From Obrimoposthia wandeli (lineage: Eukaryota), in the NCBI GenBank assembly GCA_977020255.1, contig CDROCS010002078.1, positions 124,001 to 188,000 on the forward strand: a stretch of DNA of 64,000 bases. Reading direction: 5' to 3'. Made by a program: the position numbers and the translations under genes. Positions 16,949 through 39,877 of this stretch are shown one piece after another. The number at the start of each line of letters is the position of its first letter. The first letter of the stretch is position 1. Under the pieces are notes generated by a model that did not search any database, had not been told where the DNA came from, and saw nothing but the letters and a program-made list of their open reading frames with translations.

Positions 16949-17329
16949 AGAGAAGTTTTGTCTAAATTGCCATAAAAGTTTGAAGAGAAGTTTTTGTCTA
17001 AATTGCCATAAAAGTTTGAAGAGAAGTTTTGTCTAAATTGCCATAAAAGTTTGAAGAGAAGTTTTTGTCTAAATTGCCATAAAAGTTTGAAGAGAAGTTT
17101 TGTCTAAATTGCCATAAAAGTTTGAAGAGAAGTTTTGTCTAAATTGCCATAAAAGTTTGAAGAGAAGTTTTTGTCTAAATTGCCATAAAAGTTTGAAGAG
17201 AAGTTTTGTCTAAAATTGCCATAAAAGTTTGAAGAGAAGTTTTTGTCTAAATTGCCATAAAAGTTTGAAGAGAAGTTTTGTCTAAATTGCCATAAAAGTT
17301 TGAAGAGAAGTTTTGTCTAAATTGCCATA
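16940..17329. repeat. 35/36-bp tandem array in the 5' LTR (11 units)
   Basis: Unit AAAGTTTGAAGAGAAGTTTT(T)GTCTAAATTGCCAT(A). 11 units here versus 6 in the 3' LTR (39178-39390). Confidence 0.95.
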
Positions 17330-17824
17330 GTTTTGGTATAAAGATAAAAGTTTGCCATTAAAGTTAAATTGGGAATTAAAGTTAGAGTTTGACATAAAAG
17401 TCACATTAATTTGAAAATCTATAACTTGAGCTTATTCGCGAGTTAGAGGAACGACTCTAAAAACTCGATCACCCTTAACATAAAATCGATACGTGGTTCA
17501 TCCCCACTTGTTGTAGAGACTTACAGAAGTCTTAGGAATTTTTACTATACTTTTTAGAAAATACGTACATAAACGTATTGTTGTGTTTTAGTTTCGTGAA
17601 TTACAAATAAACAATTTCCTACATTAGAACAAGTTGTTTTTGCACCCTTCAGAATAAGAGACATCAAATCAAATACCTTCAGATAGTACAAGAGATAGGC
17701 AACCATAACACTAAGTAGGCCACGACCAACTTTAAGACCTGCTTCTAATCGAACTCACGTTGGGGCCCTCCGCACTCAAGAGGATCTATACAAAGTTTCG
17801 TATAGAAACCCCAACATATTAAAG

Positions 17825-19350: not shown

Positions 19351-22300
19351 ATGGCTCACCCAGGAGCTCAAGCAGATATTAATGCAGGAAATAATGTAGG
19401 TGAAATGAATGCCGAGCAGTTGGCACGAGCTTTAAATGCGACGTTGAGACCCAATTTTTCAGGATCATTGCAGATTACAAAGTTTAAAGGAGATGAGGAA
19501 AGTATTTGTGACTTCCTCGCAGAATATTCGAGTTGTGCAGATGTTCAAGGATGGAACGATAAAGAAAAATGTGTCAGAGTACAGGCACACTTAACCGGAT
19601 TAGCACTTGAAGTGTATAAACATTTGACAGAAGCAGAACGTTTAGATTGGCCAACGTTGGAAAATGCTTTTATTGGAAAATTGGTATTAGGAGACTTAGC
19701 CAAAGTAAATAAGCGACTCATGAGAGAACGGAAACAGAAACATGATGAAGGCGTGAATGAATACGCGTATGTTTTGAGAACCTTGGCCGCAAGAGCGTAC
19801 CCAAGAAGAATAATGAGAAATCAGGACGGTAATCCTGTAGCTCCAGAAGCACAAGCAGCGGAAAATGACCGGAACCAAAATGAAATGGCAGAGGTTTTGT
19901 TAGATATATTTAGAGGAGGATTGAAAAAGGATATTAAAGTGTTATTAGCAGTATCGGATACAAATGATTTTGATAACGCCGTACGAAAGGCGAGAGAGAT
20001 TGAGAAAAATATAAAAAATAACGCAGCATTGGCAATTTACGCAATGACTGCAGGTGACGACGATAAGACAAAGGTCTTCGTGAATAAAACAGAACCGAGT
20101 AATTTTCAGAATCGAAATTATGGACAAAATAAGTTCGAAAAAGTAGATGAATCCAGTAACGGAAATAGAGATAATTTCCGAAGTAGGAATCGAGATGATT
20201 CGAGAGGTAGAAATAATAGTGAGTCTTGGAACAGGAATCGAGATGATTCAAGAGGTAGAAATAATAATGATTCGTGGAATAGAAATAGAGATGATTCCAG
20301 GAATAGATTTAATAGAGATAATTCAGGAAATCGCCAACCTTGGAGAGGAGACGATAGGAATTATAACGCCAACAGAGGAGAGCGAAGTGACTCTCGATTT
20401 GGAAATAATACAGGAAATAGCGACGGAAGATTCAATAATCGAGGAAGCGGTTTTGAATTGAATTTCCGAAGAAATGATTTTAGAGGACGCTATGATAATA
20501 GACAGAATAGTCGTCGAGTACAGTTCGAAGATGAACAAAATAAGATAGATATTCGAGGGAGAATAATGTGTTATACGTGTAAGCAAATGGGTCACTATTC
20601 GAGAGATTGTACGAGAAGTAAAGAGTTCGGAACTAACAGATTTGGAAATAATAATTTCGGTAATAATAATTTTGGAAATAATTACAGAGGATATAATTCA
20701 CCTCCGCCATGGAATAGAGGTGGTGGATATACTCCACAGCCATGGAGACTGAATAATCAGTATACAGATAGACAACAGTCACCAGGTAGATACAATAACT
20801 ATGCAGACAGACAGCAAGGAGCTGAGAGATACAATAATTACGTAGGACAGCAAGGAGCTGAGAGATATAATAATTCCGGTAGATATAATAATAATAATAA
20901 TGTTGACAAGACAAATAGTCGTGAGAGTTCGCCGAAACCGAAAGGAAATTTTAGTTATGTAAGCGATGACAGTGATAGGAATCGCGAAACCGAGCTGCGA
21001 CGCGAAATAGATTTTGAGGATAGTGATAGTAAATTTGAACGAATGTTGGGAATAATTAAAGATTCACCACATACAAAGATGGCAAATTCATCTACGTTGT
21101 CGAAACAAGAGAAAAGTCTACATTCGAGAGAAGAGATGAATGATTTAATGAATAGAATATTAGAAGCGTATGAGACACCAATAGAGAAAACGTGTAACGC
21201 ACAACCTATGACTGATCATGTAGAAGCAGCAAGAAATGCTACGAGTATGGAAAATGTAAAAAAGATAATTAGTGAAGCTAAGGAGACGTTAAATCAACCG
21301 TTAGATGAAACGAGTGAAGCTCCAGAAGTTTTGGCCAAATTGCAAACAATTAAAGTGCACCGATTGGAAGAAGTGCGTGCAGAATTGGTTAAACATAGTC
21401 ATGATAACTTGGGTTACAAAGAAGTACCCCGAGGACTACTGAAAGGTTATGGTCGTTATGTACAGAGATCAAACCAAAAAGGAACGATGAAAATTTCACT
21501 TCGATTAATTTCCGGACAGATAATACATGAAAAACTTAACGTGTATCAAACAATGAAAACGATTCGGAAAAAGTTGGCTGAGAAACTTGAAATTGATGGA
21601 ATGAATATGTTGTTCCATTATAAAGGGAGATCACTAGATGATGAGGACGTACCAGTCGAGTTTGGATATCCGATAGGAAATGAATTAGAGGAAAAAATTG
21701 ATGTCATCACTGTAGGACGTCAAGAGTTAGTAGATAATGAAGGATTAACCGAGATATTGAATTCTGCGTTAGAAATGATAAAAACGCCTATAGAAATTTT
21801 AGACAGTTCAAGTGAAAGCGGAGATAATGATGTAGCTGAAGCTTGGAACAAGACATCCACACCAGAACCATACGTAGCTGAATTACAAGACGTGGAACTA
21901 GAAAATGAGTTGACGACTCCAGTGGTCGAAGTACCACCAGAACCAGAAATAATTCAAACCAGACAAGATGAAGTCACGGATACAGCTAACCAAGTGAGAC
22001 AAAGCGAAACCGTAACCCAACTAGTAGGAGAAGACGAAGTCTCCGAGATTGTAGATTTGGATTCACCAATTTGGCATGCTGCATACAAAGATAGACAAGC
22101 AGAGCAGATGATGCGACAAAATGAAGAGATTGGCCATGAAGAAGGACCAAGTCAAGAGATACAGTATAATGATGAAACGTATGATCCAGGAGAGAATCAA
22201 GCTGAGTATCAGTATTTTCGAAGAGGACCTGGAAGACCTAGAAAAGGCAAAAGTATATTACGAAATGTTCTAACTGCACCACAAACTGATGAAGAAAGAC

Positions 22301-25299: not shown

Positions 25300-27732
25300 A
25301 ATATCGATGGAAGAGCATTGCAGTTAAATGCTAGAATATTCACAGATTGCGGAAGTCCAGTCATGATTGGGATGGACGTAATAAGAATGTTTGAAGGAAT
25401 AATTATACTACCAAACAACAAGAGTTGTAAGAATGACAGTTCAGTGAGAGAGATAAAAATGTTGAGAGGACCTATAGTCGAAAAGGAAAAATGCACTACG
25501 TTCCGTATGGGAGGTTCGTACCCAGACAGAAAACAGGAAGCGCTAGCAAAGTCGATACTTCACTACAAAAATGTAAATTTCGGACCACAAGATACGACGA
25601 GGAGAAAAATAACATATGTGAATCTGTCAGAAAGGGATCCCATGAGATTCGAGAGAAAGAGACGAAATATATTAGAACAGTACTATTCAAAAGGAATGGC
25701 ACGTAAAATGGCAAGATCAGGTTTAGAAATGCTAAACGCGACAAGTAGTTATGGTCATGAGATAGTAGTACGATGCGTATGGTGTAGAGTAAAGTTTAGA
25801 GAATGGGAAAAGAATGAAAACCCAATGAGACGTCATAAAAGAGATGCACCAAATTGTCCTTTTCTTTTGAAACTAAAAACGTCAAACGTACCAGAAATCC
25901 AAACGGGAAAAGCACCCGATTTCGATTACAGTGACGGGATTCCGAAAGGAGAATCAGCTCTAATAGCAGGAAGAGTAATAACGAATAGTCGAATTGAAGA
26001 TATATTCGAAGTTATGCGAGAAGTGATCGAATGTGACGAACAGTATCGAGAAATAACTTTCGAAGACCCAAGACTTAAAAAATTGGCAAAAAAGGGACTT
26101 TTTGCTATAAAAAAGGATGGTAAAGACGTAATTAAATGCCACAAGTGTAAAAAAGAACGAATTATCGACAGATATACTCTTGAGCTACCTAAGAAAATTT
26201 TACATCATGAATTTTGCGAATTTTGTACTTTTAAAAATAAAATAAAGCAAAAAGAACAGAAAACCGAATGTATAATCGAATATCAGATCACACGGAAAGA
26301 GATTTTGGCTCAACAAGACACACCGGTAGTGTCATTCGTGAGAAGATTATATCCAAAAGAAGCAGAAAGAATCAGAGAATTGGTAGAATTAAAAATAAAA
26401 ACTACGCGAAACGGATACGGATCGATTTTTGAATTACTGCGAGATAAAGATGACAGTACAATTGAAACAAAAGAGAAAGAGTACATAAATGAACTAGAAT
26501 ACGTACTAGAAGATCCGGAATGCGCAGTTTGCATGGTCAACAAAATAGAAGTTGCCTTTCTACCATGCGGACATGTAAGAACATGTCGGAGATGTGCAAA
26601 TGAAATGGTATCATGTCCAATTTGTCGAAGAATAATAGATCGACAAGTGAGAAACATTAGATTTCACTATCCAAACATAGGAAGTGGACTGACAGAGTGT
26701 AATAATTCGATAAATACAATATACCATATGGGAAACATAAATGGAGCACAGCGACCAGCAGCTATCATTAGAGTAAATAATTTAAGTGTAAAAGCCTTAA
26801 TTGATACAGGTGCTGTAGCTTCGATAGTAAGTGAAGACTGTTTGACAGAGGAACAGAAACGAACAATGGCAGAACCAGATGAATTCTTGGTATCGGTCAA
26901 TGGAGACCTTGTAAAAGTGACGGGAATATTACCATGTACATTTATAATAGGACGTAATACGATCACTATACCAGTTAGAATCATGAAAGAATGTCCTGAA
27001 CCTACAATTTTAGGAATGGATGTACTATCACAACTTAAAGGGATAAGTATTGATTTACAAGATCCAAGATTGAAGGATAGCACATCAAATAGACAAATAA
27101 ACCAAATTAATGTAATTATAGAGAATCCTATAAAAATCGGTAAAAGATCGCAATTTCTTATTCAAGGTCACACATTATCAGAAGATAAAGGACCAGTTGT
27201 GTTCGAACCATCACGAGATTTCATAGAGAAATACGAATTACCAGTTGTGAGTACAGTATGCCTGATCGAAAACCACAAAATACCAGTTAGACTGATGAAT
27301 ACAACCAACAATGACATTCTATTATACAGAGGAATGAGGTTGGGAAAGATAGCACAGATGGAGAATCCCACCGTGTGTGCTATGAAACTCGATAAAGATA
27401 CGAATGATTACGAAGAAATAGTAATCCAATCAGAAAGACTGACAACTAGAGAAAAGAAACAATTACTTGATCTAATACATAAATTTCCGAAAGTAATTGC
27501 AAAAAACCCATATGACATAGGAGAAACACCTGTCATAAAACATACAATACCACTGACAGAAGACAAAGTAGTCAGAAGAAGACCATATCGAGTACCATTA
27601 CAGTTACAAGATGAAGTAAAAAGTCAGATCGAAGATATGTCTAAAACAGGAGTAATTAGACCGAGTTTTTCGCCATTCTCAGCACCTGTGGTGTTGGTAA
27701 AAAAGAAGGATGGGAAAATGATGGGAAAATGA
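25300..27732 (+). CDS. Polyprotein segment 2: rest of protease 1 - BIR - BIR-like - RING (IAP) - protease 2 - N-terminal part of RT
   Basis: Same frame as segment 1 after the TAG (track ORF 25318-27732). BIR CVWC-x16-H-x6-C (25774-25857); second BIR-like LAKKGLF...KDVIKCHKC; IAP-type RING CAVC...PCGH..C..C...CPIC (26521-26628); DTG at 26803; ILGMD. Confidence 0.93.
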   Translation, partial: NIDGRALQLNARIFTDCGSPVMIGMDVIRMFEGIIILPNNKSCKNDSSVREIKMLRGPIVEKEKCTTFRMGGSYPDRKQEALAKSILHYKNVNFGPQDTTRRKITYVNLSERDPMRFERKRRNILEQYYSKGMARKMARSGLEMLNATSSYGHEIVVRCVWCRVKFREWEKNENPMRRHKRDAPNCPFLLKLKTSNVPEIQTGKAPDFDYSDGIPKGESALIAGRVITNSRIEDIFEVMREVIECDEQYREITFEDPRLKKLAKKGLFAIKKDGKDVIKCHKCKKERIIDRYTLELPKKILHHEFCEFCTFKNKIKQKEQKTECIIEYQITRKEILAQQDTPVVSFVRRLYPKEAERIRELVELKIKTTRNGYGSIFELLRDKDDSTIETKEKEYINELEYVLEDPECAVCMVNKIEVAFLPCGHVRTCRRCANEMVSCPICRRIIDRQVRNIRFHYPNIGSGLTECNNSINTIYHMGNINGAQRPAAIIRVNNLSVKALIDTGAVASIVSEDCLTEEQKRTMAEPDEFLVSVNGDLVKVTGILPCTFIIGRNTITIPVRIMKECPEPTILGMDVLSQLKGISIDLQDPRLKDSTSNRQINQINVIIENPIKIGKRSQFLIQGHTLSEDKGPVVFEPSRDFIEKYELPVVSTVCLIENHKIPVRLMNTTNNDILLYRGMRLGKIAQMENPTVCAMKLDKDTNDYEEIVIQSERLTTREKKQLLDLIHKFPKVIAKNPYDIGETPVIKHTIPLTEDKVVRRRPYRVPLQLQDEVKSQIEDMSKTGVIRPSFSPFSAPVVLVKKKDGKMMGK

Positions 27733-29984
27733 GATTCTGTATAGATTTCAGAGAACTGAACAAGATCACAAGAAAAGATGTGTATCCATTACCTAGAATC
27801 GAAGAGATGCTCGATAAATTGGGTAATTCAGATTATTTTACAACATTGGATTTGCAGAGTGGATACTGGCAAATCGAGATAGAGGAAGAGGATAAACACA
27901 AAACAGCCTTTTCCTGTGGAGATGGATTATACGAATGCGAAAAGATGCCATTTGGACTGACAGGAGCTCCAGCAACATTTCAGCGTTGCATGAATTTTGT
28001 ACTCGCATCGTGTGCAAACACGATGGTTTATATTGATGACATAATAATATTTTCGAAAACGTTCGAAGAACATTTAAAAAATCTTGAAGTTGTATTTAAA
28101 AGACTGGAAAACGCTAAATTAAAAGTTAAACCTACAAAATGCGAATGGGCTAAAGAGCGAGTAACATTTTTAGGACATATAGTATCGAAAGAAGGCATTC
28201 GACCTGATCCAGCGAAGATCGAGAAAGTAAAAGCGCATTTAGCGCCAAAGACTGTTAAAGAGATACAGAGTTTTTTAGGTCTTGCGAATTATTATAGACG
28301 ATTTGTTGAACATTTTTCAGATATAGCAACACCATTGAGAAAGTTGACGAGGAAAGATGAGAAGTTCATATGGGGAGAAGAAGCCCAACAAGCGTTCGAG
28401 CATTTAAAAGAAAGACTGATAAAAGCACCAATATTAGCGTTTCCAGATATAAACCGACAATTCATACTCATGACAGATGCAAGTAACTATGCTGTAGGAG
28501 CAGTATTGGGACAAGAGGATGACGAAGGAAGAGAACACGTCATTGCGTATGCGAGTAGAGGATTAAACAGAGCCGAAAGAGTATACTCTGTTATCGAAAA
28601 GGAATGTCTAGCCATAGTGTATTCATGTAGACAGTACAGACACTATTTGCTAGGACAAAAAGTATTCCTGTATACAGATCACAAACCACTACAATTCTTA
28701 TATAAACATAGAGATGAGATGAGTAGATTAAACAGATGGTTTCTAAAATTGGCCGAATTCGATCTAGAAATCCGTTATAGAACCGGAAAGTCGAACGGCA
28801 ACGCAGATTGTTTGTCGAGATTGACAAATGTAGACGAGAAAGGAAACATAATTCCAGAAGAAGATGAAACCAATGATCAAAAAGGAGAAGCAAATCTACT
28901 GACGATTTTGCTAAAAACGGGTAAAATAGACAAAGAGATCATCAAAGAACAGAAAGAAGATGAAGAACTGAGTCTAATCAAAGAATTGTTGGTGAAAGGA
29001 GACCTAAACGATGAAATGACGAAAAAATACTCGATAAAAGAAGGAATCTTGTATATTGTCAATAATGTCGGAAAGATAGTAGTAGTAATTCCGAAGTCAT
29101 TGAAAACAGCAGTGATGATCCAGTATCACGACGGAACACTAGGAGGACATCTGTCAGGGCGAAAGACGATAGCCAGAATCAAAGAGAAGTACCATTGGGA
29201 TGGTATGGAAGACGACATAAAACAATGGTGTAAACAATGTAAAGTATGTTTAACCAGAAAAGACACCGGAACTCGTACTAAAGTTCCGTTGAAACCAATG
29301 CCAGTTCCCTTGGCACCAATGGAATTCACAGCGATGGATATATTGGGACCATTGAGAGAATCAAGTAAAGGAAACAAGTATGTCATAGTATTTACGGATT
29401 ACATGACGAGATGGGTAGAAGCATATCCCATGCAGAACCAGAAAGCTGAAACAATAGCACAAATCTTAGTGGAAGAGATAATATTTCGATATGGAGTGCC
29501 TAGAAAATTGCTAACAGATCAAGGTAAGAACTTCACTGGAGAAGTCATAAAAGCAGTATCGAAGATATTCGGAATCATGAAGTTACAAACTTCACCATAT
29601 CACCCACAGACAGATGGTCTGGTAGAAAGGTTTAATAAAACTTTATGTATGATGGTACAATCCTATTGCTCCGACAAGCAAGAGGATTGGGATAAATATT
29701 TACCTTCATGTTTATATGCTTACAGGAATTCAGTTCGAGAGGCGATGGGTCACACACCATTCTATCTGATGTATCTCAGACAGAACAATATGCCGATGGA
29801 TCTGGAGTGGACCGAGCCAACATCTCAGTATCTAGAAACTGAACAATACATTGTCGTTATGAAGGAAAGGTTACAAGATGCTTGGACCAAAGCCGGATTG
29901 AAGTTGAAATTCAATCAAGAAGGTTACAAGGAACAATACGACAAAAAGCAAAACCACATGAATTTAGAGTCGGAGATCAAGTGA
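27729..29984 (+). CDS. pol: Polyprotein segment 3: RT - RNase H - integrase
   Basis: YIDD (28029-28040); RNase H TDASNYAVG...EKECLAI...TDHKPL; IN HHCC zinc finger, MDILGP, TDQG, HPQTDGLVERFN. Separated from segment 2 by an 11-bp duplication. Confidence 0.97.
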   Translation: MRFCIDFRELNKITRKDVYPLPRIEEMLDKLGNSDYFTTLDLQSGYWQIEIEEEDKHKTAFSCGDGLYECEKMPFGLTGAPATFQRCMNFVLASCANTMVYIDDIIIFSKTFEEHLKNLEVVFKRLENAKLKVKPTKCEWAKERVTFLGHIVSKEGIRPDPAKIEKVKAHLAPKTVKEIQSFLGLANYYRRFVEHFSDIATPLRKLTRKDEKFIWGEEAQQAFEHLKERLIKAPILAFPDINRQFILMTDASNYAVGAVLGQEDDEGREHVIAYASRGLNRAERVYSVIEKECLAIVYSCRQYRHYLLGQKVFLYTDHKPLQFLYKHRDEMSRLNRWFLKLAEFDLEIRYRTGKSNGNADCLSRLTNVDEKGNIIPEEDETNDQKGEANLLTILLKTGKIDKEIIKEQKEDEELSLIKELLVKGDLNDEMTKKYSIKEGILYIVNNVGKIVVVIPKSLKTAVMIQYHDGTLGGHLSGRKTIARIKEKYHWDGMEDDIKQWCKQCKVCLTRKDTGTRTKVPLKPMPVPLAPMEFTAMDILGPLRESSKGNKYVIVFTDYMTRWVEAYPMQNQKAETIAQILVEEIIFRYGVPRKLLTDQGKNFTGEVIKAVSKIFGIMKLQTSPYHPQTDGLVERFNKTLCMMVQSYCSDKQEDWDKYLPSCLYAYRNSVREAMGHTPFYLMYLRQNNMPMDLEWTEPTSQYLETEQYIVVMKERLQDAWTKAGLKLKFNQEGYKEQYDKKQNHMNLESEIK

Positions 29985-30706
29985 TGATATTTTATCCAGT
30001 CATCGAACCAGGTCTATCGTTTAAACTTCATAGACCATACAAAGGACCATACAAGGTGATCCAGACAACCTCAACAAATTTGAAAGTAATCAACGAAGAG
30101 AATCGGAACAAGGAACCGATGATTGTACATGCAAATCGATGCAAATTAGTACCAAATAAAGATAATGCGTCACGATATGAGTTAAGATCACAGAAATCGA
30201 AATCGAATACCAATACCATTAAACTTACACGAATGGTAAGTGATCGGAACTACATAAACATGATGACGAGTGGTAGCGAGAAAAAACCAGCGAGAATTGG
30301 TATGCTCAGAATGAAGTACCAAGAGGAAAAGGAAGTAATCCGACACATCGCACCACAAGAGATATTAGAAGAAGACGAAGAGATAATAGTTGTTTTCGAA
30401 AAAACACAACCAACAGATGTGGCTAAAGAAGTCATTGTGAAAGATGCACTGACAAACGAATTTCTGTGCGAACTTAGAGTGTCATACTACGACGGAAATA
30501 CATTAGTCGCAGCACTTTATCAAAATTCCAATGTGTTTACGACTGAGAAAGTGATAATCGAAATCACATTGACACCAAACATAGTTGCATGGCAGAACTA
30601 TGACAGTACTGAAGCAGGACTAGCCAGTCAGGAAGAGAAGGAACCGGCCGGTGGTCACATACTGCATGGTACACCAAAAGACTCAAACAAGAATACCACG
30701 ATGTAA
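29882..30706 (+). CDS. Polyprotein segment 4: integrase C-terminus (GPY) and beta-rich repeat 1
   Basis: KAKPHEFRVGDQVM...KLHRPYKGPYKV...VHANRCK. Joins segment 3 if one A is added to the run at 29943-29947. Confidence 0.9.
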   Translation: MDQSRIEVEIQSRRLQGTIRQKAKPHEFRVGDQVMIFYPVIEPGLSFKLHRPYKGPYKVIQTTSTNLKVINEENRNKEPMIVHANRCKLVPNKDNASRYELRSQKSKSNTNTIKLTRMVSDRNYINMMTSGSEKKPARIGMLRMKYQEEKEVIRHIAPQEILEEDEEIIVVFEKTQPTDVAKEVIVKDALTNEFLCELRVSYYDGNTLVAALYQNSNVFTTEKVIIEITLTPNIVAWQNYDSTEAGLASQEEKEPAGGHILHGTPKDSNKNTTM

Positions 30707-30708
30707 TA

Positions 30709-32031
30709 ATGGTATTACGTAATTCACATGGGAAAAGAGATATCATGAGAGTCCATTTAATCGACGCTGACACTGAAAAGATAATTTGTCAGATGGACAC
30801 TAAATACTTTGATGGAAAGACAATTGTATGTTGTATACCAGAATCTCACCGGTTAGACACAGATCAAACGGAAGTATCTGTAAGGTTGAGCGTAATAGAA
30901 GGATTCCATTCGCCAACCCATCCGGAAGTGACTAACAATAAAATCATCAAAGCAACGGCAGAATTACGCATTGACAGCGGATACCGGAAGTGGGAAGCTA
31001 AAAATAAAAAGCCACAAAGAATCAATATGATCCGAGAACAAGTGACCAACTCAATCCAGCCAAAATATCATGCTGAAATAGTATCATCCGCGCCAAGTGT
31101 GATCACATCGATAAACGACGAAATTATAATTTTACTAAAAAATCGATGGCCGTCATCAACTGAGATACGAGTAAACTTAATTAATTATGCGAAGACACCG
31201 ATATCTAAGCTGAATGTTACCTATTTTGATGGATTGTCCATCATGGGTAAATTGGAAACAATTGTCATGTGCTATGGAGCACAGTTCCAAGTTGAGATAC
31301 TTAAAGATAGTGTAATACCGTATCCGATTCACAAATACGAAGGGGAAATCAATCCAATTATTCTAACACCTTCATTAATTTCAGTTCAGACAGACATACC
31401 AGAATACCCTTCGAGCGAGTCTAGTGAAGACAGCGAACCGGAAAGTAACGATACAGAATCAACAGAATCCGAAGATAACATAATAGAGCGATTCGGAAGA
31501 ACCATGGAGGTTGAATTCGCTAAAGAGAGCAGAAAAAGACAAAATATAGAATTCGTGAAACAGAATATACAAGAAAGACGAATTAAATCTGCAGAAGAGA
31601 CCGAGTCGGAAGAAGACTCAACAAAGGAACAGACATCAGAGACAAAGATGAATATCTCTCCAGCAATACGAATGCTGAGAGGAAAGAAACTGGCGAAACT
31701 ATCCAACATCGACGAACAGATAGAGAAGAGATTAGAAAGACTAAAACTTGAAGAGTCAGAACTAACGCCACCAATGAGTGAGATCATTCCAGGTAAGTTA
31801 TACCTCGGAAATGTGGAGGATGCAACCGATGAAAAGAAACTGTTGAAACAAGGGATAACATATGTGATCAACGTTACAATGAATCACAAATCGCAATATC
31901 AGACGATCAGAGCTATGACATTAAGAGTAAAAGACTCAATGGACGCTAATCTTCTCGAATGGTTCGTAGAAACAAACGAAATACTTCACAGAGAACTCCG
32001 AAACCAAGGAAAAGTGTTGGTACATTGTTAG
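30709..32031 (+). CDS. Polyprotein segment 5: beta-rich repeats 2-3, acidic linker, N-terminal part of a dual-specificity phosphatase
   Basis: MSEIIPGKLYLGN...LLKQGITYVINVT...KVLVHC*. Joins segment 4 if one A is added at 30676-30679. Ends at a TAG inside the P-loop HC*KGISRS. Confidence 0.9.
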   Translation: MVLRNSHGKRDIMRVHLIDADTEKIICQMDTKYFDGKTIVCCIPESHRLDTDQTEVSVRLSVIEGFHSPTHPEVTNNKIIKATAELRIDSGYRKWEAKNKKPQRINMIREQVTNSIQPKYHAEIVSSAPSVITSINDEIIILLKNRWPSSTEIRVNLINYAKTPISKLNVTYFDGLSIMGKLETIVMCYGAQFQVEILKDSVIPYPIHKYEGEINPIILTPSLISVQTDIPEYPSSESSEDSEPESNDTESTESEDNIIERFGRTMEVEFAKESRKRQNIEFVKQNIQERRIKSAEETESEEDSTKEQTSETKMNISPAIRMLRGKKLAKLSNIDEQIEKRLERLKLEESELTPPMSEIIPGKLYLGNVEDATDEKKLLKQGITYVINVTMNHKSQYQTIRAMTLRVKDSMDANLLEWFVETNEILHRELRNQGKVLVHC

Positions 32032-33948
32032 AAAGGAATTTCTCGATCAGCAACTCTAGTATTAGCATATCTAATAAAGACTAGACGAATGCAGGTACTA
32101 GAAGCGCTAAAATACCTACAGGAGAGAAGAAGTATTGCAAACCCAAATCTTAATTTTTTGGGACAGTTGGCAAATTACCAACTTCTGTTGCAAGAACAAA
32201 GACGGATGGACGACATTCCTGAGGATCCAAAGGAAAAGAATTTCCTCCAAGCATTATCATTGACTGGGTTATTTTTAGCCGGAGTCGACAAAATTACACA
32301 GATAATGCCAAAAGTATTTTTATGTCATCCAGGAGATATAGATACTGCTGGATTAAAGTTCCACAGTATCAACCGAGTAATCAACATTGTTGAAGTCGGA
32401 AACGAGATAATTAGTCTGTGTCAAAATACTGAAGATGACACCACTCGATACATACATGCTTCCAATCGAGAAATAAACGATGCACAACAACATCTGACGA
32501 AATTGACTCAAACCATCCAAGCTGAAGTCACAGAAGGAAACGGCGTTCTGATATATCAGAAAAAAGGTACGATGTTAGCGCCTACCATAGGTGTATCCTT
32601 GTTGGTAGAGTACCATGGTCACACGCCAGAAGAAGCGATGGTCTACATCAAACAGAATAGACCGAATACGGAATTCAAACCGTTACTCGTTCGAGAAATA
32701 GAGAAATACACCGAAAAGAGGAAGCAACAACGAGAAACAAATGAAGCTACAACAACAGTGCCCAGCTTTCAATACCAAAGATTGTTAGCGATAGGCTTGT
32801 TAAGTTGTTTAATGCCGATAACGGGAGCACAAGAGATAGGCTCCAACCACGGAAATAGTTCCTGGTTCAACGAAATCCACAACTACACCATACAGTACCA
32901 TACGCCGGCACTGATGATGCTATTAGTATTGTTAGGACTAATTGATGTGTGGATCATCCGAAAATGTCTTCGATCTATGAGAACCGACAGTAAAAGATTT
33001 CAGTTTGTAAAGATGAAGAGACCAAATGGACCAACGAACAAAGTGCTTGTGTATCTAGACGAAAGGATCGAGGACAACATAGTAAATGAAGCGATATTTT
33101 ACCCACAAAACAGAATACTGAATCAATTTCGAATAGATTACGAAGCTGACCGACAGCGCACACTTGACCGAATATCAACAACATTCGCTGGATGCAAGCG
33201 AAGAAAACGAGTTGTAAAGGAAATACAAAAAGATGCTGATACAAAAGGACCAACGTATATATTCGATGGCGATGTCATCAAAACACGTGAGTATGGAAGT
33301 AAGAGAGTGATAATTGAAACGATGGAAGGACATAAAACATGTTTGTCCGCCAAAAATGGATTCGGAAAGTTGACGATACAAGGTAAACCAGTACAGTTGA
33401 TTATCGGAAGAAATGGAATCGAGGAGATGTCAAAACAACGACAGATAACAAAACGATCTAATCAGAAACAGATATCTCTCAAACGATTGATAATTAAAAC
33501 CCTTTGCAAAAGGTCGGTCAAGGCCCTGTGCACCGTTGCACAAGGATTGATCTATGGAGTAGTAATTGGATTGGTACTGCAAGCCATGCCAACCAGTAAA
33601 GCCGAATTGATGACACTATCCGAATATAATTTACATTTGAGAAATCTAGACAACACCCTAGAAATAATCAAGACATCCCACAGTAGAGCCGTGATGATCA
33701 TGTGTGTAAAAGGATGTCCAGGACGAATGTGTATAGTCCCAGCGACCGAAATGATAACACTTAATGGACATTATGGAGTTAGTGTTGTCACATGTGAAGA
33801 CTACATATTTGGACAAACTAAAATAGTGCTTCTCAGTGACATGTCCAACCAAAGTGCACACAAATTTAAAATATTAACCATCAAGAGTAAAGGAATACCA
33901 GCAGTACGTTATGGTATTCTAGAATTGGTTAAACATTACTGGCACTGA
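32032..33948 (+). CDS. Polyprotein segment 6: rest of the DSP, DSP-like pseudophosphatase, signal-peptide/TM membrane modules
   Basis: In frame after the TAG: KGISRSATLVLAYLI...EALKYLQERRSIANPNLNFLGQL. Second DSP fold (ITQIMPKVFL...INRVINI...GVLIYQKKG...EEAMVYIKQNRP) lacks the catalytic Cys/Arg. Hydrophobic segments at 32782-32829, 32908-32958 and ~33520-33603. Confidence 0.88.
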   Translation, partial: KGISRSATLVLAYLIKTRRMQVLEALKYLQERRSIANPNLNFLGQLANYQLLLQEQRRMDDIPEDPKEKNFLQALSLTGLFLAGVDKITQIMPKVFLCHPGDIDTAGLKFHSINRVINIVEVGNEIISLCQNTEDDTTRYIHASNREINDAQQHLTKLTQTIQAEVTEGNGVLIYQKKGTMLAPTIGVSLLVEYHGHTPEEAMVYIKQNRPNTEFKPLLVREIEKYTEKRKQQRETNEATTTVPSFQYQRLLAIGLLSCLMPITGAQEIGSNHGNSSWFNEIHNYTIQYHTPALMMLLVLLGLIDVWIIRKCLRSMRTDSKRFQFVKMKRPNGPTNKVLVYLDERIEDNIVNEAIFYPQNRILNQFRIDYEADRQRTLDRISTTFAGCKRRKRVVKEIQKDADTKGPTYIFDGDVIKTREYGSKRVIIETMEGHKTCLSAKNGFGKLTIQGKPVQLIIGRNGIEEMSKQRQITKRSNQKQISLKRLIIKTLCKRSVKALCTVAQGLIYGVVIGLVLQAMPTSKAELMTLSEYNLHLRNLDNTLEIIKTSHSRAVMIMCVKGCPGRMCIVPATEMITLNGHYGVSVVTCEDYIFGQTKIVLLSDMSNQSAHKFKILTIKSKGIPAVRYGILELVKHYWH

Positions 33949-35444
33949 TCATTGGATTTATAATATTAATACTACTCATCTTGTTTTGTTGTACAAAGAT
34001 AGAGTCGAGATCAAAAAAGAAACGTCATGATCTCGCAAGACGAACAGGTCAAATGAACTTACAAAAATTCAACACAATTATACCAAGACCACCATTTCTA
34101 GATGAACCAGCACCAGAGTACCAGCCAACGATATATGAACATATTGAGGAAAGACCGTACTATATGAGTAATTTGACTTGTTTCATTGAAGTTCCTGAGT
34201 TTAGGAATCGAACGATCATAGGAATCATGCTGATCATACAAATCACCACTACCAAGGCTAGTTATGAGATCATGATCAGTAAATGGAGACAAGACGTAAT
34301 ACGGGCAGTATACATAGAAATCCCCCTACTAAAAACAAATCACGTAGTAGACATTCATCTACAGACGTCAGCAACTGACAATATCGATCAGAAATTGTAT
34401 GTCATCCGACAGGTCAGAATAAAAATCGACCAAAATACACCCGTTTACAATTTAATATTATTGTATCATGAAAGAGTGTTATACCTAAGGATAACAATAT
34501 CAAAGAGGAAGCGGATTATCCAAAGTATCCGAACAAAGTCATTAATATTGCCTAGAGATGAGCGCATCTGGAAAATTGTCGACAGGATTATGATCACAGG
34601 CAGACGACGTAAAACCGTATGGAATTCCGTTAGAATATTTTTCAGATTGTTAGAAACTGACAGGGTGACAGTAATGTGTCCCAACCCAGATGGCGGAATC
34701 AGATTCGAAATCCAAAGCCAAATGTTAGTACCACATTTTAACACAGAATGTCTGTGTAATCGAATTGCCAGTAATACTACAGAGACCTCGACCATAATCA
34801 TGATAATAACAGGTGAAATATTCTACATAACTCTAAGATACCAGAACCGTCGATTTCGTAAATCCGGTATAAGTATCAAACCCAGGAAAATCATTCCCAA
34901 AAGACCAATCCTAGTCAAAAAGAAGGCAAAGGTAATCGAAAGTAAACGCCATTCCAAAAAACCGACAGTGATCAGAACAAAGACAGAAGCGAAAGAAAAA
35001 GAGCTAAATCCCAGAAACCAAAGTACAATTATTAAGAGGACAAGAGTGAGGGGAACGATCCCACTAGATCCCAAACATCATTTCCAATCCAAAATAATAA
35101 TACCTGTTCCATCAGAAACAAAACACCCAAATCCCCGAATTTTTAGAAAATCGGACATAATACATGGAAACCGATCAAAACCCATGGAAATGTCATTCGA
35201 ACCGACAAACAACAAAATGAAGTATGATTATAAATCATCAGACAGCGGAATAACAGCGGTCAATGCCCTAATTGGAATGGCCGTAGTGTCAACAGCAGTG
35301 GTTTTATTGACAATCATGTGCGTAAAAGGCAGTCAAGTATGCCCAGGAATACGACGAAAATGCGAAGGATTTCGATGCTGTGACACACCCACCATGGAGG
35401 AAGTGGAATTGCGACCCTTACCTCCGCCTCCCATCAAGATATGA
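33933..35444 (+). CDS. Polyprotein segment 7: TM, Tyr-motif tail, type I membrane protein with proline-rich C-terminus
   Basis: The frame is open from 33933 (TLLALIIGFIILILLILFCC). Joins segment 6 if one A is added at 33931-33933. TIYEHI at 34128-34145; signal-like 34215-34259; TM ~35259-35324; RPLPPPP at 35412-35432. Confidence 0.8.
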   Translation, partial: TLLALIIGFIILILLILFCCTKIESRSKKKRHDLARRTGQMNLQKFNTIIPRPPFLDEPAPEYQPTIYEHIEERPYYMSNLTCFIEVPEFRNRTIIGIMLIIQITTTKASYEIMISKWRQDVIRAVYIEIPLLKTNHVVDIHLQTSATDNIDQKLYVIRQVRIKIDQNTPVYNLILLYHERVLYLRITISKRKRIIQSIRTKSLILPRDERIWKIVDRIMITGRRRKTVWNSVRIFFRLLETDRVTVMCPNPDGGIRFEIQSQMLVPHFNTECLCNRIASNTTETSTIIMIITGEIFYITLRYQNRRFRKSGISIKPRKIIPKRPILVKKKAKVIESKRHSKKPTVIRTKTEAKEKELNPRNQSTIIKRTRVRGTIPLDPKHHFQSKIIIPVPSETKHPNPRIFRKSDIIHGNRSKPMEMSFEPTNNKMKYDYKSSDSGITAVNALIGMAVVSTAVVLLTIMCVKGSQVCPGIRRKCEGFRCCDTPTMEEVELRPLPPPPIKI

Positions 35445-35567
35445 TGAGTCAGAGGAGGTTGTAGATAAATTAGTGTGTGAAATATGTAGAAATATCTAGA
35501 AGCGATTGTACAAATAGTAGAAATATATAAAACTCATGTAGAAATTAATCATCATCATGTATTTAGA

Positions 35568-35867
35568 ATGGCTGAAGAATGCCCAATATGTTTGGAAGAT
35601 CTAACCGAACGAAGAACAAGACCCGAAACCTGCAACCATTTACACCACGAGGAATGTTTATCGACATGGATCAGAACTTATGGACAGTTCGGACATCCAA
35701 CATACCCTTGTTGCCCTGTATGCAGAAGACAATTCGCAAGATTCATCATGTTAGAAACCAACCAAGAGGATGTATATGTACAGGTGGTATTCTGTTGGAA
35801 GAATTTCGGAGAGTGTTGGTGTTATTACTGTTTGTCAGATCGACAAAATCAGACCACTTTTGTGTAA
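35568..35867 (+). CDS. Accessory RING-H2 protein 1 (99 aa)
   Basis: CPIC...CNHLHHEECLSTW...CPVCRRQF, plus C-terminal CWKNFGECWCYYC. Confidence 0.85.
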   Translation: MAEECPICLEDLTERRTRPETCNHLHHEECLSTWIRTYGQFGHPTYPCCPVCRRQFARFIMLETNQEDVYVQVVFCWKNFGECWCYYCLSDRQNQTTFV

Positions 35868-35927
35868 ACATCACACAACCACCAGTCCTCAATCGAGCCC
35901 AAATTCAACATCAACCCTCCCACAGTA

Positions 35928-36232
35928 ATGTCTGGAGAATGTTCCATCTGCTACGAGAGCATCGTGGACTTCTACACCAAGCCCAACAACTGCGACCACC
36001 TTTTCCACGTCGAATGCCTCGAGACGTGGATCCCCATCGCAAACAGCAACAATCCCCTCGACTTCCCAACCTGCCGATGTGCAGAGCGACCTTCTCAGTA
36101 CACTACGTGTACAACCAAGACAGCCTCCAAGCAGTGGTACCCATCGTACACTGCTGGAAAACCATCTGCGATTGCTGGTGCTCGTTCTGCGTGGAGGAGC
36201 GAAGCACAGGCCAGCCCAATCCCCAACAATAA
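35928..36232 (+). CDS. Accessory RING-H2 protein 2 (~101 aa after repairing a 1-nt loss)
   Basis: CSIC...CDHLFHVECLETW...TC|PMCRATF...CWKTICDCWCSFC. The two halves lie in track ORFs 35928 and 35579 and are joined by adding one C at 36074-36075. Confidence 0.82.
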
Positions 36233-36567
36233 TCGAAGGTAACTTTCTGACTTGAACGTGACATCATGAACTACCCTGTGTATCGCATACCGCGATAAAT
36301 TAGCTACCATAATTGTAATCATAATTATATAATCTTGTGAACTGTAAATTGACCATTACCATTTTTATGTATGATGTTTAACTGAAATTGTAATTATTAT
36401 ACTGAATTTCTAAAAAAGACAATTTTTTATGCTTAGTGTGAATGCGTAAACATGCCTAAAATCGAAACAAAACTCGGTAGGATTGGATAACTAAGGATTC
36501 GTTTTGAAATAAAAATTAAATTAACGATGAGAACGGTGAACCCCAAATTGAAAGGAGTTATTTTCTT

Positions 36568-37104
36568 ATGCAGATGAAGTGCTCTGTATGCATGGAGAAG
36601 ATTTGGGCGGTATCAGCATCCCCTGTCGGCTGCCGTCACAAATTCCACGAGGAGTGCCTCTATTTGTGGGCCAAGGCTCGACCCCCCGGCCATATCACAT
36701 GTCCACTGTGCCGGACACCCTTTGGCAAATGGACGCTCCAGAGCCGTGGAAGGCACAAGGGCACCCGATCGCCTGCCAGCTGCATTGGTGGCATACATTG
36801 CCAATGCTACGTGTGTCTCGCACGCCGGCGCGACACACAACTGGGCATCCGCGAGAGATGGCGGTCTAGTCGAGACTGCCACTCGTGGTTCCAGGCCATA
36901 CGTCTCTGGATAGAAAATCACGCGATGAACGGGCAGTATTTCGACCTGTTTGTCGAGAGCCCACACCTAACCCGGAGCCAACAACTACACCTGTACAACG
37001 GGGACAGTCCGTCCTTTCCCGACCTACCCCTGGAGCAGGTTCTGCGCTACCTGGCCAGTCGGAACCAGCCGACAATTACAATTGACCTAACTTATGACAA
37101 TTGA
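36568..37104 (+). CDS. Accessory RING-H2 protein 3 (176-178 aa), GC-rich
   Basis: CSVC...CRHKFHEECLYLW...CPLCRTPF, plus CIGGIHCQCYVC. The ATG at 36574 follows a TTTTCTTATGCAG acceptor-like site. Confidence 0.85.
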   Translation: MQMKCSVCMEKIWAVSASPVGCRHKFHEECLYLWAKARPPGHITCPLCRTPFGKWTLQSRGRHKGTRSPASCIGGIHCQCYVCLARRRDTQLGIRERWRSSRDCHSWFQAIRLWIENHAMNGQYFDLFVESPHLTRSQQLHLYNGDSPSFPDLPLEQVLRYLASRNQPTITIDLTYDN

Positions 37105-37367: not shown

Positions 37368-39877
37368 TGTTAGGTTTGAGAATTAAGAAATTTAAATATT
37401 TTAGTCGATTAAATACTAAAATAAAAATCCTTGAAAGCAAGGTTGAAAATTAAATTAAATATTAATTTTAGTTTTAGAATTGAAATTAGTGGAATTTAGG
37501 GTAAAAATTAGGAGGACCACGAAGGTCGTGTATAATGTGAAATGTATAAAAGTTAGATTAATTAACCCAAAAGTGCAACAAAAGACACATTAACTAAGCA
37601 AAGAAGAAAAAAGGGAACAATATCGAACGTCAATCAAAATCGAACGTCAATCAAGGTAAGCACATTTTCGTGCAGTTAAATTGGAGTGTTTAAAATTAAT
37701 TTTCAGCTGCCGCAAAAGACTCCAGTTGAAACCGCTGTCGACATTGCTGACTGACAGACAGGAGTTGCAGAATCGACTATAAAAGTCGTCGACAAGAAAA
37801 CGAAATACACAACCGGAAAAAGCAATATCCCAATCTACTGAGAAATAGACCACAAAAAACCAAGGAAAACCAACATTGTCCCTAGCAGCAACCAGGTGGT
37901 TTTGTGATAGACTTGGAGATTTAATTATTGATTTAGCAAACTAACTGATTGGGAAATTCTCACGTTTCGTCACACAAGACTTAAAGATCAATCTATCACG
38001 GATTTGGGCAAAGTCGTAACAGCGACATACAAATCGATTCTATTCAACCGAACTCGAACTTAATTTTAGTTTTAGAATTGAAATTAGTGGAATTTAGGGT
38101 AAAAATTAGGAGGACCACGAAGGTCGTGTATAATGTGAAATGTATAAAAGTTAGATTAATTAACCCAAAAGTGCAACAAAAGACACATTAACTAAGCAAA
38201 GAAGAAAAAAGGGAACAATATCGAACGTCAATCAAAATCGAACGTCAATCAAGGTAAGCACATTTTCGTGCAGTTAAATTGGAGTGTTTAAAATTAATTT
38301 TCAGCTGCCGCAAAAGACTCCAGTTGAAACCGCTGTCGACATTGCTGACTGACAGACAGGAGTTGCAGAATCGACTATAAAAGTCGTCGACAAGAAAACG
38401 AAATACACAACCGGAAAAAGCAATATCCCAATCTACTGAGAAATAGACCACAAAAAACCAAGGAAAACCAACATTGTCCCTAGCAGCAACCAGGTGGTTT
38501 TGTGATAGACTTGGAGATTTAATTATTGATTTAGCAAACTAACTGATTGGGAAATTCTCACGTTTCGTCACACAAGACTTAAAGATCAATCTATCACGGA
38601 TTTGGGCAAAGTCGTAACAGCGACATACAAATCGATTCTATTCAACCGAACTCGATCTATCACGGAGCAGAGCTTGTGAACCAGTTCAATTGTTGTTCCA
38701 GTCAGCACTATATCAGCGAATTTTCATTCGGCAATTCAAATTCAGTCAGCCGATCGGTTTTTGTGTTCGATCTCAGTATATTCCGGAACGCTTCAGGATA
38801 TCTCAACCTCGAGACAAAAAACGTAAGAGAGATTACTAAAATTTGTCTCAATTGTCCTAAAGTTGTCATAAAGTTTGACACTAAAATTGTCTCAATTGTC
38901 CTAAAGTTGTCATAAAGTTTGACACTAAAATTGTCTAAATTGTCCTAAAGTTGTCATAAAGTTTGACACTAAAATTGTCTAAATTGTCCTAAAGTTGTCA
39001 TAAAGTTTGACACTAAAATTGTCTAAATTGTCCTAAAGTTGTCATAAAGTTTGACACTAAAATTGTCTAAATTGTCCTAAAGTTGTCATAAAGTTTGACA
39101 CTAAAATTGTCTAAATTGTCCTAAAGTTGTCATAAAGTTTGACACTAAAATTGTCTAAATTGTCCTAAAGTTGTCATAAAGTTTGAAGAGAAGTTTTGTC
39201 TAAATTGCCATAAAAGTTTGAAGAGAAGTTTTTGTCTAAATTGCCATAAAAGTTTGAAGAGAAGTTTTGTCTAAATTGCCATAAAAGTTTGAAGAGAAGT
39301 TTTGTCTAAAATTGCCATAAAAGTTTGAAGAGAAGTTTTTGTCTAAATTGCCATAAAAGTTTGAAGAGAAGTTTTGTCTAAATTGCCATAGTTTTGGTAT
39401 AAAGATAAAAGTTTGCCATTAAAGTTAAATTGGGAATTAAAGTTAGAGTTTGACATAAAAGTCACATTAATTTGAAAATCTATAACTTGAGCTTATTCGC
39501 GAGTTAGAGGAACGACTCTAAAAACTCGATCACCCTTAACATAAAATCGATACGTGGTTCATCCCCACTTGTTGTAGAGACTTACAGAAGTCTTAGGAAT
39601 TTTTACTATACTTTTTAGAAAATACGTACATAAACGTATTGTTGTGTTTTAGTTTCGTGAATTACAAATAAACAATTTCCTACATTAGAACAAGTTGTTT
39701 TTGCACCCTTCAGAATAAGAGACATCAAATCAAATACCTTCAGATAGTACAAGAGATAGGCAACCATAACACTAAGTAGGCCACGACCAACTTTAAGACC
39801 TGCTTCTAATCGAACTCACGTTGGGGCCCTCCGCACTCAAGAGGATCTATACAAAGTTTCGTATAGAAACCCCAACA
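37368..39877 (+). repeat. 3' LTR (2,510 bp) with an internal 598-bp tandem duplication
   Basis: 37462-38059 is repeated at 38060-38657. Five fewer 35/36-bp units than the 5' LTR; 2089+598-177=2510. Confidence 0.97.
39667..39672 (+). terminator. Candidate polyadenylation signal in the 3' LTR
   Basis: AATAAA ~205 bp before the LTR end (17606-17611 in the 5' LTR), followed by a GT/T-rich stretch (GTTGTTTTT). Confidence 0.4.

Follow-up and report, generated by a model that had tools for sequence, protein, structure and literature searches.

The structural polyproteins of alpha-, flavi- and bunyaviruses are built from anchors followed by internal signals that are cleaved by host signal peptidase; LTR elements have, to our knowledge, been thought limited to one membrane protein, Env. 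The giant gypsy-like Burro/GYPSM1 elements of planarians exceed 30 kb, carry ORFs of 4,873 and 5,140 codons and occur in thousands of copies, and the portions of this account drawn on here mention neither a phosphatase nor membrane proteins beyond integrase (PMC6431247). GAG-ENV-POL errantiviruses with an HSV/gB-type Env are described from Nematoda, Bryozoa and Platyhelminthes in a survey that left out LTR pairs >14 kb apart and that, in the portions used here, mentions no post-integrase cargo or membrane protein (PMC13524379).

We analyzed a stretch of 64,000 nucleotides from Obrimoposthia wandeli (hereafter the window), which holds a Burro-like gag-env-pol Ty3/gypsy element of 24,150 bp present in at least 3,500 copies in the genome (Table 1). 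The element displays the hallmarks of Ty3/gypsy, i.e., TG...CA LTRs, a target duplication (AATT on both sides) and the order PR-RT-RH-IN, and its LTRs are young in this family, with 3 mismatches over 1,918 aligned bases, one of them beyond the LTR end. Like Burro/GYPSM1, it has one giant ORF with Gag-CCHC, ubiquitin/SUMO-like, Bcl-2-like, BIR and RING domains, an Env in frame between gag and pol, and thousands of copies; unlike the described elements, it measures 24 kb rather than >30 kb, encodes a single polyprotein of ~5,360 codons rather than 4,873 and 5,140, and gave no Pfam match to MATH or ankyrin (PMC6431247). A dUTPase-like domain was likewise without a Pfam match in the window ORFs, and the published detection of some of these three domains used HHpred. 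With the surveyed errantiviruses the element shares the gag-env-pol order and a gB/chuvirus-type fusogen between signal and TM (PMC13524379). The region under study comprises the final ~890 codons of the polyprotein (889 aa).

Table 1. Features of the element in the window; signal, ectodomain, TM and tail designations are predictions
Feature	Position	Strand	Basis
5' LTR, TG...CA, internal tandem arrays	15728..17816	+	LTR alignment
Polyprotein part 1, Gag (CCHC) to first aspartic-protease-like domain	19354..25296	+	Pfam and by eye
BIR, RING, protease, RT, RNase H, integrase	25300..29981	+	Domain search
Post-integrase cytosolic region, about three Y[YF]DG-containing repeats, no family assigned	30143..31780	+	
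DSP domain 1 (DSP1), MAPK-phosphatase-like	31780..32190	+	Domain search and structural relatives
DSP domain 2 (DSP2)	32251..32730	+	DSPc, E 8.7e-7
S1, signal-like LLAIGLLSCLMPITGA ending PITGA	32776..32829	+	Hydropathy, (-3,-1)
Ectodomain 1, 26 aa	32830..32907	+	Sequons NSS 32854, NYT 32881
TM1 with basic stop-transfer RKCLR	32908..32964	+	Hydropathy (stretch 32902-32961)
Cytosolic domain 1, 187 aa, net +22, no family	32965..33525	+	
S2, signal-like, ending PTSKA	33526..33603	+	Hydropathy, (-3,-1)
Ectodomain 2, 108 aa, 4 Cys, one sequon	33604..33927	+	
Frameshift stretch of window copy	33927..33941	+	Copy comparison
TM2, then RSKKKR	33936..33995	+	Hydropathy (stretch 33933-33995)
Cytosolic tail 2: KFNTIIPRPP, APEY, TIYEHI (34128-34145), YY	33996..34205	+	
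S3, shortest signal-like segment, TIIGIMLIIQITTTKA ending TTTKA	34206..34259	+	
Ectodomain 3: ~200 aa beta-rich part and basic Pro-rich stalk	34260..35249	+	
TM3	35250..35324	+	Hydropathy (stretch ~35256-35324)
Tail 3: Cys-rich juxtamembrane part, RPLPPPP (35412-35432), C-terminus IKI, stop 35442	35325..35444	+	
Three RING-finger ORFs beyond polyprotein stop	35490..37104	+	Domain search
3' LTR with 598-bp internal duplication	37368..39877	+	LTR alignment

Part 1 of the polyprotein runs through Gag (CCHC), a ubiquitin-like domain, a Bcl-2-like domain, an internal signal, a gB-type Env, the Env anchor and an aspartic-protease-like domain. The Env is of the Monjiviricetes fusion type (PF24664, E 3.5e-93), flanked by a signal recognised by eye and a TM (the anchor, at 24580-24666); the first aspartic-protease motif was also recognised by eye. 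The ubiquitin-like domain is weak (E 0.014, under the cut-off; E 0.002 with ubiquitin variants), as is the Bcl-2-like domain (E 0.093, under the cut-off), and the two stand in the same order as published for Burro. Further downstream, BIR matched at E 9e-12, the best structural relatives of DSP1 are the MAPK phosphatases DUSP10, 5, 1 and 2, and DSP2, whose sequence has no HCxxGxxR motif, is probably a pseudophosphatase.

The window copy itself is damaged. Its gag-env frame is unbroken, a stop at 25297 breaks the polyprotein at the end of part 1, and frameshifts lie near 27700, 29950 and 30690. A further stop at 32029-32031, within the DSP1 active-site motif, is private to this copy (1/30), and a frameshift near 33933 puts TM2 and the whole of unit 3 in another frame; because of this upstream stop and this frameshift, the window copy cannot make the products discussed below. 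In other copies the frame is open from a point ahead of Env right through to its end: all 84 other top-matching copies have an open frame longer than the window's 503 aa, and the longest among the top copies reaches 4,252 aa, extending back beyond Env. At 33927-41 the frame is intact in 3,224 of 3,500 copies (92%) and one base short in the remaining 276. Shared variants indicate purifying selection, with pN/pS between 0.00 and 0.68 in 13 of 13 membrane-region segments, from a sample of 30 copies with small counts in which copies are not independent. In this sample, S1 (0 non-synonymous, 7 synonymous variants) and TM2 are at 0.00, S2 at 0.06 and tail 2 at 0.13; tail 3, at 0.62, was recorded as the least constrained segment, and S3 is at 0.68, from three shared variants.

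Across the seven ORF pieces of the element, uncharged 11-residue stretches with KD ≥ 2.3 number seven, i.e., the Env anchor and six in the membrane region, where signal-like and anchor-like stretches alternate. A (-3,-1) site of small residues lies at the expected distance in each of S1, S2 and S3 (the same scan does not detect the Met-rich Env signal), and the flanks of TM1-3 are positive-inside. Based on hydropathy and the (-3,-1) rule, the predicted topology supports N-out membrane proteins from serial internal signals, and its parity fits, since RT, IN and DSP must be cytosolic ahead of S1. All features named in the earlier note were located in the sequence. Its picture of serial type I proteins is supported for the internal signals and N-out orientation and needs revision in two respects: the products would come from one polyprotein with Gag, Env and Pol, and units 1 and 2 would each stay anchored a second time by the signal that follows, which would leave unit 3 as the only plain type I protein. 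Both sequons that it had listed in ectodomain 1 are present, and NSS appears usable. Glycosylation requires a minimum distance between sequon and membrane; NYT, nine residues before TM1, is probably too near, and it is also polymorphic (HNYTI identical in 26/30 copies and missing in L031, a copy at 94% identity).

Next, we compared this organization across the clade. In 17 of 18 distant members (P0001-P0015 and P0017-P0019, with P0005 counted as the miss), a single post-integrase unit of signal, ectodomain, TM and tail closes the polyprotein, as against three units in the window family; P0016, from a fish, 36% in RT and with its integrase end not located, was excluded from the count. Relatives are 51-58% identical to the window in RT-IN and 40-41% in Env (four tested), and in a quick-method RT tree the window branch is long and unplaced. 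A Pfam scan of 12 relatives detected no DSP, BIR or RING; in many relatives, integrase is followed by a third protease-like domain or by ankyrins (ankyrin repeats in P0006 and P0008). Their ectodomains are series of two-Cys beta repeats, carrying as many as 14 sequons and set on a stalk, and vary widely by lineage, P0015, P0018 and P0019 falling outside the repeat profile.

Given this architecture, we consider it fairly probable that the region encodes accessory membrane proteins released by signal peptidase and docking on host scaffolds. The genomic RNA would be translated into one ~5,360-residue polyprotein, also containing Gag, Env and Pol, that would make as many as eight passes of the ER membrane (Env signal, Env anchor, S1, TM1, S2, TM2, S3, TM3). 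Host signal peptidase would cleave after the Env signal, S1, S2 and S3, and the element's aspartic proteases would release the cytosolic enzymes from the loop between Env anchor and S1. Three products are predicted. In p1, a glycosylated tip of 26 aa would be followed by a TM, a basic domain of 187 aa and the S2 stub; p2 would carry 108 aa of ectodomain, then a TM, the Pro/Tyr tail and the S3 stub; and p3 would join an ectodomain of 330 aa to a TM and a Cys- and Pro-rich tail. Putatively, p3 replaces the clade-wide post-integrase protein, p1 and p2 being additions in the window family. At the cell or particle surface, p1-p3 would join Env and attach to scaffold and trafficking adaptors of the host through a PDZ-type C-terminus, Pro-rich WW/SH3-type motifs and possibly a phosphotyrosine site, which would steer the site of particle assembly or host cell-surface signalling. 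Such a scheme would work as in alpha-, flavi- and bunyaviruses, to which the sequences are unrelated; unlike in those viruses, it would sit inside a reverse-transcribing Gag-Pol, where the cytosolic loop separating two anchors would contain RT and IN.

PDZ-type ends are S/T-x-V/I/L in class I and hydrophobic-x-hydrophobic in class II. A class I end is found in 9 of 17 relatives (0.45 expected; 0 of 5,000 shuffles reach this), in at least three lineages of the tree, and a hydrophobic last residue in 14 of 17 tails versus 3.9 expected. A PDZ-type C-terminus appears, from the relatives' tails, to be a conserved feature that the earlier note overlooked. The window C-terminus, IKI, is not class I and fits only the looser class II pattern. 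A juxtamembrane F/Y-x(0-5)-PP pattern, picked after inspecting the tails, occurs in 10 of 17 relatives versus 2.3 expected; in the window, tail 2 has an F-x-PP pattern and the last residue of tail 3 is I.

The earlier note had instead read the tails as receptor mimics that recruit SH2/SH3 signalling, plausibly working with the adjacent phosphatase. Spelled out, TIYEHI (which fits the ITSM consensus TxYxxI/V) would recruit SH2 proteins of SHP2/SAP type, RPLPPPP would recruit Src-family SH3 domains and the phosphatase would act in the same circuit, a reading that we think unlikely. Among family copies the motifs are well kept: 29 of 30 copies share the same 18 residues around TIYEHI and 28 of 30 share LRPLPPPPIK, the frequent variants in the Tyr region of tail 2 are all third-position, and both motifs are present in L031. 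However, since copies are 97-99% identical, this identity proves little. Among the 17 distant tails, YxxI/L/V is at chance level (10 versus 8.9 expected); ITIM/ITSM-like motifs occur in 5 tails versus 3.6 expected, ITSM in 2 versus 0.4 (P = 0.055), class I SH3 motifs (RxxPxxP) in 1 versus 0.84 and RPLPP in none. TxYxxI turned up in 2.6% of tail 2 and 8% of three-tail shuffles; RxLPPxP is rare, in 0.07% of tail 3 shuffles as against 17% for the looser RxxPxxP. SAP-type ITSM switching is a vertebrate system and MAPK phosphatases act on MAP kinases; since the adjacent phosphatase is MAPK-phosphatase-like, its partnership with the tails is unsupported, and the absence of the catalytic motif from DSP2 and of DSP from the 12 scanned relatives points the same way. 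As the relatives' tails are homologous by position only, the mimicry claim is lowered rather than refuted for the window family.

A different role would be that of an entry machine in two parts, p3 (perhaps with p2) serving as an attachment or tropism factor for the gB-type fusogen, by analogy with herpesvirus gB working with gD and gH/gL. Production from a single polyprotein, which fixes the ratio to Env at 1:1, the post-integrase surface protein in 17/18 relatives and an adhesion-type build of two-Cys beta repeats, sequons and stalk would suit this role, which we nonetheless regard as improbable: ectodomains diverge between lineages, the conserved signal lies in the tail rather than the ectodomain, and other class III fusogens bind receptors unaided. 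Nor did searches provide a fold or ligand. For the 889-aa membrane region there was no homologue in 1.84 billion proteins and none among 4,298 candidates; an Atlas search returned only weak single-pass-membrane look-alikes (≤ 0.82) and, with ectodomain 3, no match; PDB sequence searches yielded no useful match for the region and no fold or ligand for the ectodomains. Structure prediction, which the earlier note had proposed for the ectodomains, drew part of ectodomain 3 as beta-rich at low confidence (pLDDT 36.6 and 42.3, too poor for fold searching). Ectodomain 3 marginally resembles the relatives' two-Cys domain (score against a profile of 23 units equalled in 9/500 shuffles; hhalign 19.8 versus a maximum of 16.4 in 60 shuffles, with a probability of only 3.7%). 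Ectodomain 2 shows no likeness to this profile (30/500 shuffles reach its score) and has a single sub-threshold Pfam row, a poxvirus 2L N-terminal domain (E 0.15). An LxPxTxY-like motif, of the kind seen in fibronectin type III domains, occurs in 8/17 relatives, with no Pfam fn3 row and no PDB match. A broader version, also rather unlikely, is that throughout this widespread clade the protein behind integrase is a second surface glycoprotein, freed by signal peptidase, that serves the gB-type fusogen as attachment factor and is positioned by its PDZ-type tail, which would give these elements a two-component entry and budding apparatus. The window family might have expanded this glycoprotein into three membrane proteins whose tails mimic receptors, with a MAPK phosphatase/pseudophosphatase pair tethered to the membrane, damping host stress and immune signalling.

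The number of membrane proteins depends on S3. Were S3 unused, tail 2 and "ectodomain 3" would form one long basic cytosolic domain with TM3 as a C-terminal anchor, leaving two membrane proteins, the last not receptor-like. S3 has the lowest hydrophobicity (KD11 2.55, uncharged run 14; undetected at a 15-residue threshold), S1 is at 2.59, and both are below every one of the 17 relatives' post-integrase signals (2.72-3.67). S3 is also drawn as a strand in the low-confidence AlphaFold model, its pN/pS is 0.68 on three shared variants, the stalk is 25% K+R, and the TM3 charge flanks are ambiguous at 15 residues. Still, we judge this arrangement quite unlikely: a signal precedes the last ectodomain in 17/17 scored relatives, three of which (P0007, P0013 and P0014) have equally basic, Pro-rich stalks, S3 itself shows a basic n-region and just one (-3,-1) site, and a cytosolic location would fit the Cys cluster, the Pro motif and the hydrophobic end found in tail 3. 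That the region is a captured or de novo passenger, functionless and translated merely through being in frame, is highly improbable despite its orphan sequence and the unusual codons used in part of ectodomain 3; the selection result, with pN/pS well under 1 in almost every segment, largely refutes it, alongside the frame intact in 92% of copies and the architecture shared with 17/18 relatives.

If signal-peptidase release with host docking is correct, Gag-Pol in this clade ends with a further surface protein predicted to be cleaved from its signal, and a single, highly successful family has three, combined with putative anti-apoptotic, ubiquitin and phosphatase cargo. RT and integrase would then arise as a loop in a polyprotein threaded through the ER, as in positive-strand RNA viruses; the three predicted new N-termini and the PDZ-type ends would offer handles on cell exit and host manipulation by enveloped retroelements of invertebrates.

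Two other readings of the frame were discarded. A programmed frameshift or secreted-ectodomain allele at 33933 was prompted by a sample, skewed toward gap-free matches, in which 17 of 30 loci lack one base, and was ruled out by the genome-wide count (276/3,500), with the missing base at several places and the short form scattered on the tree. Codon usage at 34300-34900 suits other frames better; compensating frameshifts in ectodomain 3 were ruled out, as almost every copy keeps this frame open. For a divergent sister subfamily, assembly searches gave no match or two near-identical copies; sister sequences 82-87% identical were seen as read contigs. Separately, near-identical pieces of the element occur in a sequencing run labelled marine metagenome.

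In the C-terminal part of this giant LTR-retroelement polyprotein, behind the integrase and two dual-specificity phosphatase (DSP) domains, an earlier note had described a signal-like helix, ectodomain, transmembrane segment and basic cluster, repeated three times. We confirmed this pattern: six hydrophobic stretches alternate, with a small-residue (−3,−1) site in each of the internal signal-like segments S1, S2 and S3 and a basic cluster after each of the anchors TM1, TM2 and TM3. Across the element's seven ORF pieces, uncharged 11-residue stretches with KD ≥ 2.3 numbered seven, i.e., the Env anchor and these six, the scan missing the Met-rich Env signal. Because enzymes upstream of S1 must be cytosolic, S1 is predicted to run in-to-out, with parity then consistent through to the polyprotein end. 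The NYT sequon lies 9 residues from TM1 and is polymorphic.

The enclosing element carries, in Pfam order, Gag CCHC, gB-type Env (PF24664, E 3.5e-93), BIR, RING, protease, RT, RNase H, integrase, the two DSPs, the membrane-protein region and three RING ORFs, with weak ubiquitin-like and Bcl-2-like matches between Gag and Env. Its LTRs differ by 3 mismatches over 1,918 aligned bases (one of them beyond the LTR end), and tandem-array length is also unequal between them. The inverted repeat on either side suggests that a DNA transposon or MITE was the element's insertion site. The family numbers at least 3,500 copies in the 1.35-Gb genome of its animal host, and 13 of 21 contigs from a run labelled marine metagenome were ≥95% alike. 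The element type is already known: planarian Burro elements share its layout (PMC6431247), the present element being smaller and a candidate member of Burro proper, and a gag-env-pol order is described in the accessible part of PMC13524379. In our literature search, no publication described a membrane protein placed after the integrase and cleaved from a signal; such domains may be mentioned in the original Burro paper or its extended data, in review Fig. 2A or in the eLife supplements. The accessible part of PMC13524379 does not mention one, and those of PMC8532177 and PMC13238120 hold nothing further on domains.

Features of the window and of the element within it
Positions	Feature	Remark
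67-2686	Decayed second gypsy element	Minus strand
5272-6075	hAT-like transposase remnant	By eye
14987-15216, 39914-40143	Inverted repeat, 230 nt, 99%	Both sides of whole element
15728-17816, 37368-39877	LTRs	Element of 24,150 bp
17817-18940	PBS-like TGG sequence 8 nt past 5' LTR, then 1.1-kb leader	Leader of 20-, 49- and 109-nt tandem repeats
24860-24890	Env cytoplasmic tail: acidic EVYAKI, then Pro residues	Resembles bacterial EPIYA-type phosphotyrosine motifs
30143-31400	About three repeats with Y[YF]DG motif, after integrase	Family unassigned; weak match to post-integrase part of P0008 (E 1.5e-5, small database)
32251-32730	Second DSP domain	
32782-35444	Three signal-ectodomain-TM-tail units	
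33604-33927	Ectodomain 2: weak match to poxvirus 2L N-terminal domain	Sub-threshold Pfam, E 0.15 over 90 residues
33945-34279	Contigs of read sets X2 and X5 just 82–87% alike	Suggests a sister subfamily, not found by pattern searches of the assembly
35490-37104	Three RING-finger ORFs, 3' of polyprotein stop	Private frameshift of window copy near 36074
37462-38059	Tandem duplication, 598 bp, in 3' LTR	Absent from 5' LTR
43612-44667	108-bp tandem array	
56308-56721	Short frame with PDZ-like GISIVGG motif	May be a host exon

The window copy is damaged: two stop codons interrupt it, at 25297 and at 32029, and its frame shifts near 27700, 29950, 30690 and 33933; judged from other copies, these are not programmed. 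All 84 non-window copies among the 85 top protein matches kept a frame of >503 aa open across 33933 (longest among these matches, 4,252 aa, extending upstream of Env), and 1 of 30 copies has the stop at 32029. Spacing between two fixed anchors around 33933 is frame-keeping in 3,224 copies and one base short in 276 (17 of 30 in an initial, biased sample); the missing base falls at several different positions, which suggests that bases were lost sporadically or that the assembly is in error. Gag and Env share one frame in the window, and thus the family encodes a single ORF of about 5,360 codons, with the three units as its C-terminal ~890 residues.

No homologue of this 889-residue region was found among 1.84 billion representative proteins, and further homology searches likewise gave none. 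Searches with Env and integrase instead yielded 19 proteins (P0001–P0019); excluding the fish protein P0016 (36% identical in RT-IN) left 18 relatives at 51–58% RT-IN identity. In 17 of these, the protein closes behind the integrase with a single signal-like helix, a 100–390-residue ectodomain, a single TM and a short tail, an ending not found in P0005. Most of their ectodomains repeat a beta domain with two cysteines (23 units from 14 proteins); its LxPxTxY-like motif is reminiscent of fibronectin type III, an identity for which searches of Pfam and PDB gave no confirmation. The match of ectodomain 3 to this repeat is marginal, with both cysteines in register (a profile score as high in 9 of 500 shuffles; an hhalign score of 19.8, the maximum of 60 shuffles being 16.4, at a probability of 3.7%), and ectodomain 2 does not match; by position, and weakly by sequence, this makes unit 3 the counterpart of the clade's post-integrase protein, and units 1 and 2 additions. 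DSP, BIR and RING domains are absent from all 12 relatives scanned. Many of the 19 proteins have three aspartic-protease-like domains, one behind the integrase immediately ahead of the signal, and P0006 and P0008 carry ankyrin repeats behind the integrase. The post-integrase signal of P0009 (1232–1249) starts MSTTM, as does the Env signal at window ~22930. P0017 is labelled Flavobacteriaceae by its source, yet clearly stems from this retroelement.

We propose that the polyprotein would be inserted co-translationally, signal peptidase cleaving after the Env signal and after each of S1–S3, and that the cytosolic loop would be cut by the element's own proteases to release RT, integrase and, probably, the DSPs. 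In units 1 and 2 the signal of the following unit would stay attached and serve as a further anchor, as is also the case in alphavirus E2 and bunyavirus Gn; unit 3 alone would be a plain type I protein. These products would be synthesised 1:1 with Env, and their most likely site of action is the surface of the cell or particle, via scaffold and trafficking adaptors. We hold the scheme as a whole to be reasonably probable, the role being its weakest part; the interpretation in the earlier note is upheld in part.

That interpretation had the tails mimic receptors, recruiting SH2/SH3 signalling through an ITSM-like TIYEHI (tail 2) and a Src-SH3-like RPLPPPP (tail 3). Both motifs are retained within the family (29/30 and 28/30 copies, and a 94% copy), which says little at such close distance; TxYxxI arises in 2.6% of tail 2 shuffles and RxLPPxP in 0.07% of tail 3 shuffles. 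We then considered the 17 distant tails, i.e., those of the single-unit relatives, against 5,000 shuffles. ITSM occurred in 2 (0.4 expected, P 0.055), ITIM/ITSM in 5 (3.6), YxxI/L/V in 10 (8.9), PPxY in 2 (0.76), class I SH3 in 1 (0.84) and RPLPP in none. Class I PDZ ends occurred in 9 (0.45 expected; at least three lineages of a quick tree, the relatives including close pairs), a hydrophobic last residue in 14 (3.9), and F/Y-x(0-5)-PP, a pattern picked after inspection, in 10 (2.3). Window tail 2 carries F-x-PP, and tail 3 ends in IKI, which fits just the looser class II PDZ pattern. Receptor mimicry is, in our judgment, unlikely. Nor is the proposed direct circuit between tails and adjacent phosphatase supported, as the first DSP is closest to MAPK phosphatases and the second lacks the catalytic motif while being strongly constrained (pN/pS 0.04). 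The two form a tandem of phosphatase and probable pseudophosphatase.

An attachment partner of the fusogen, a reading compatible with the scheme of surface products, is likewise improbable. We give somewhat less credence to S3 being unused as a signal: its hydrophobicity (2.55) falls below that of the signals of all 17 relatives (2.72–3.67) and it appears as a strand in a predicted structure (a poor model), its (−3,−1) site speaking for use. S1 (2.59) lies below that range too. That the region is passenger sequence is very improbable, with purifying selection in every segment (shared variants in 30 non-independent copies, 97–99% identical): pN/pS was 0.00 for S1 and TM2, 0.06–0.13 for S2, ectodomain 1, TM1 and cytosolic parts 1 and 2, 0.15–0.32 for ectodomains 2 and 3 and TM3, and 0.62–0.68, from very few variants, for tail 3 and S3.
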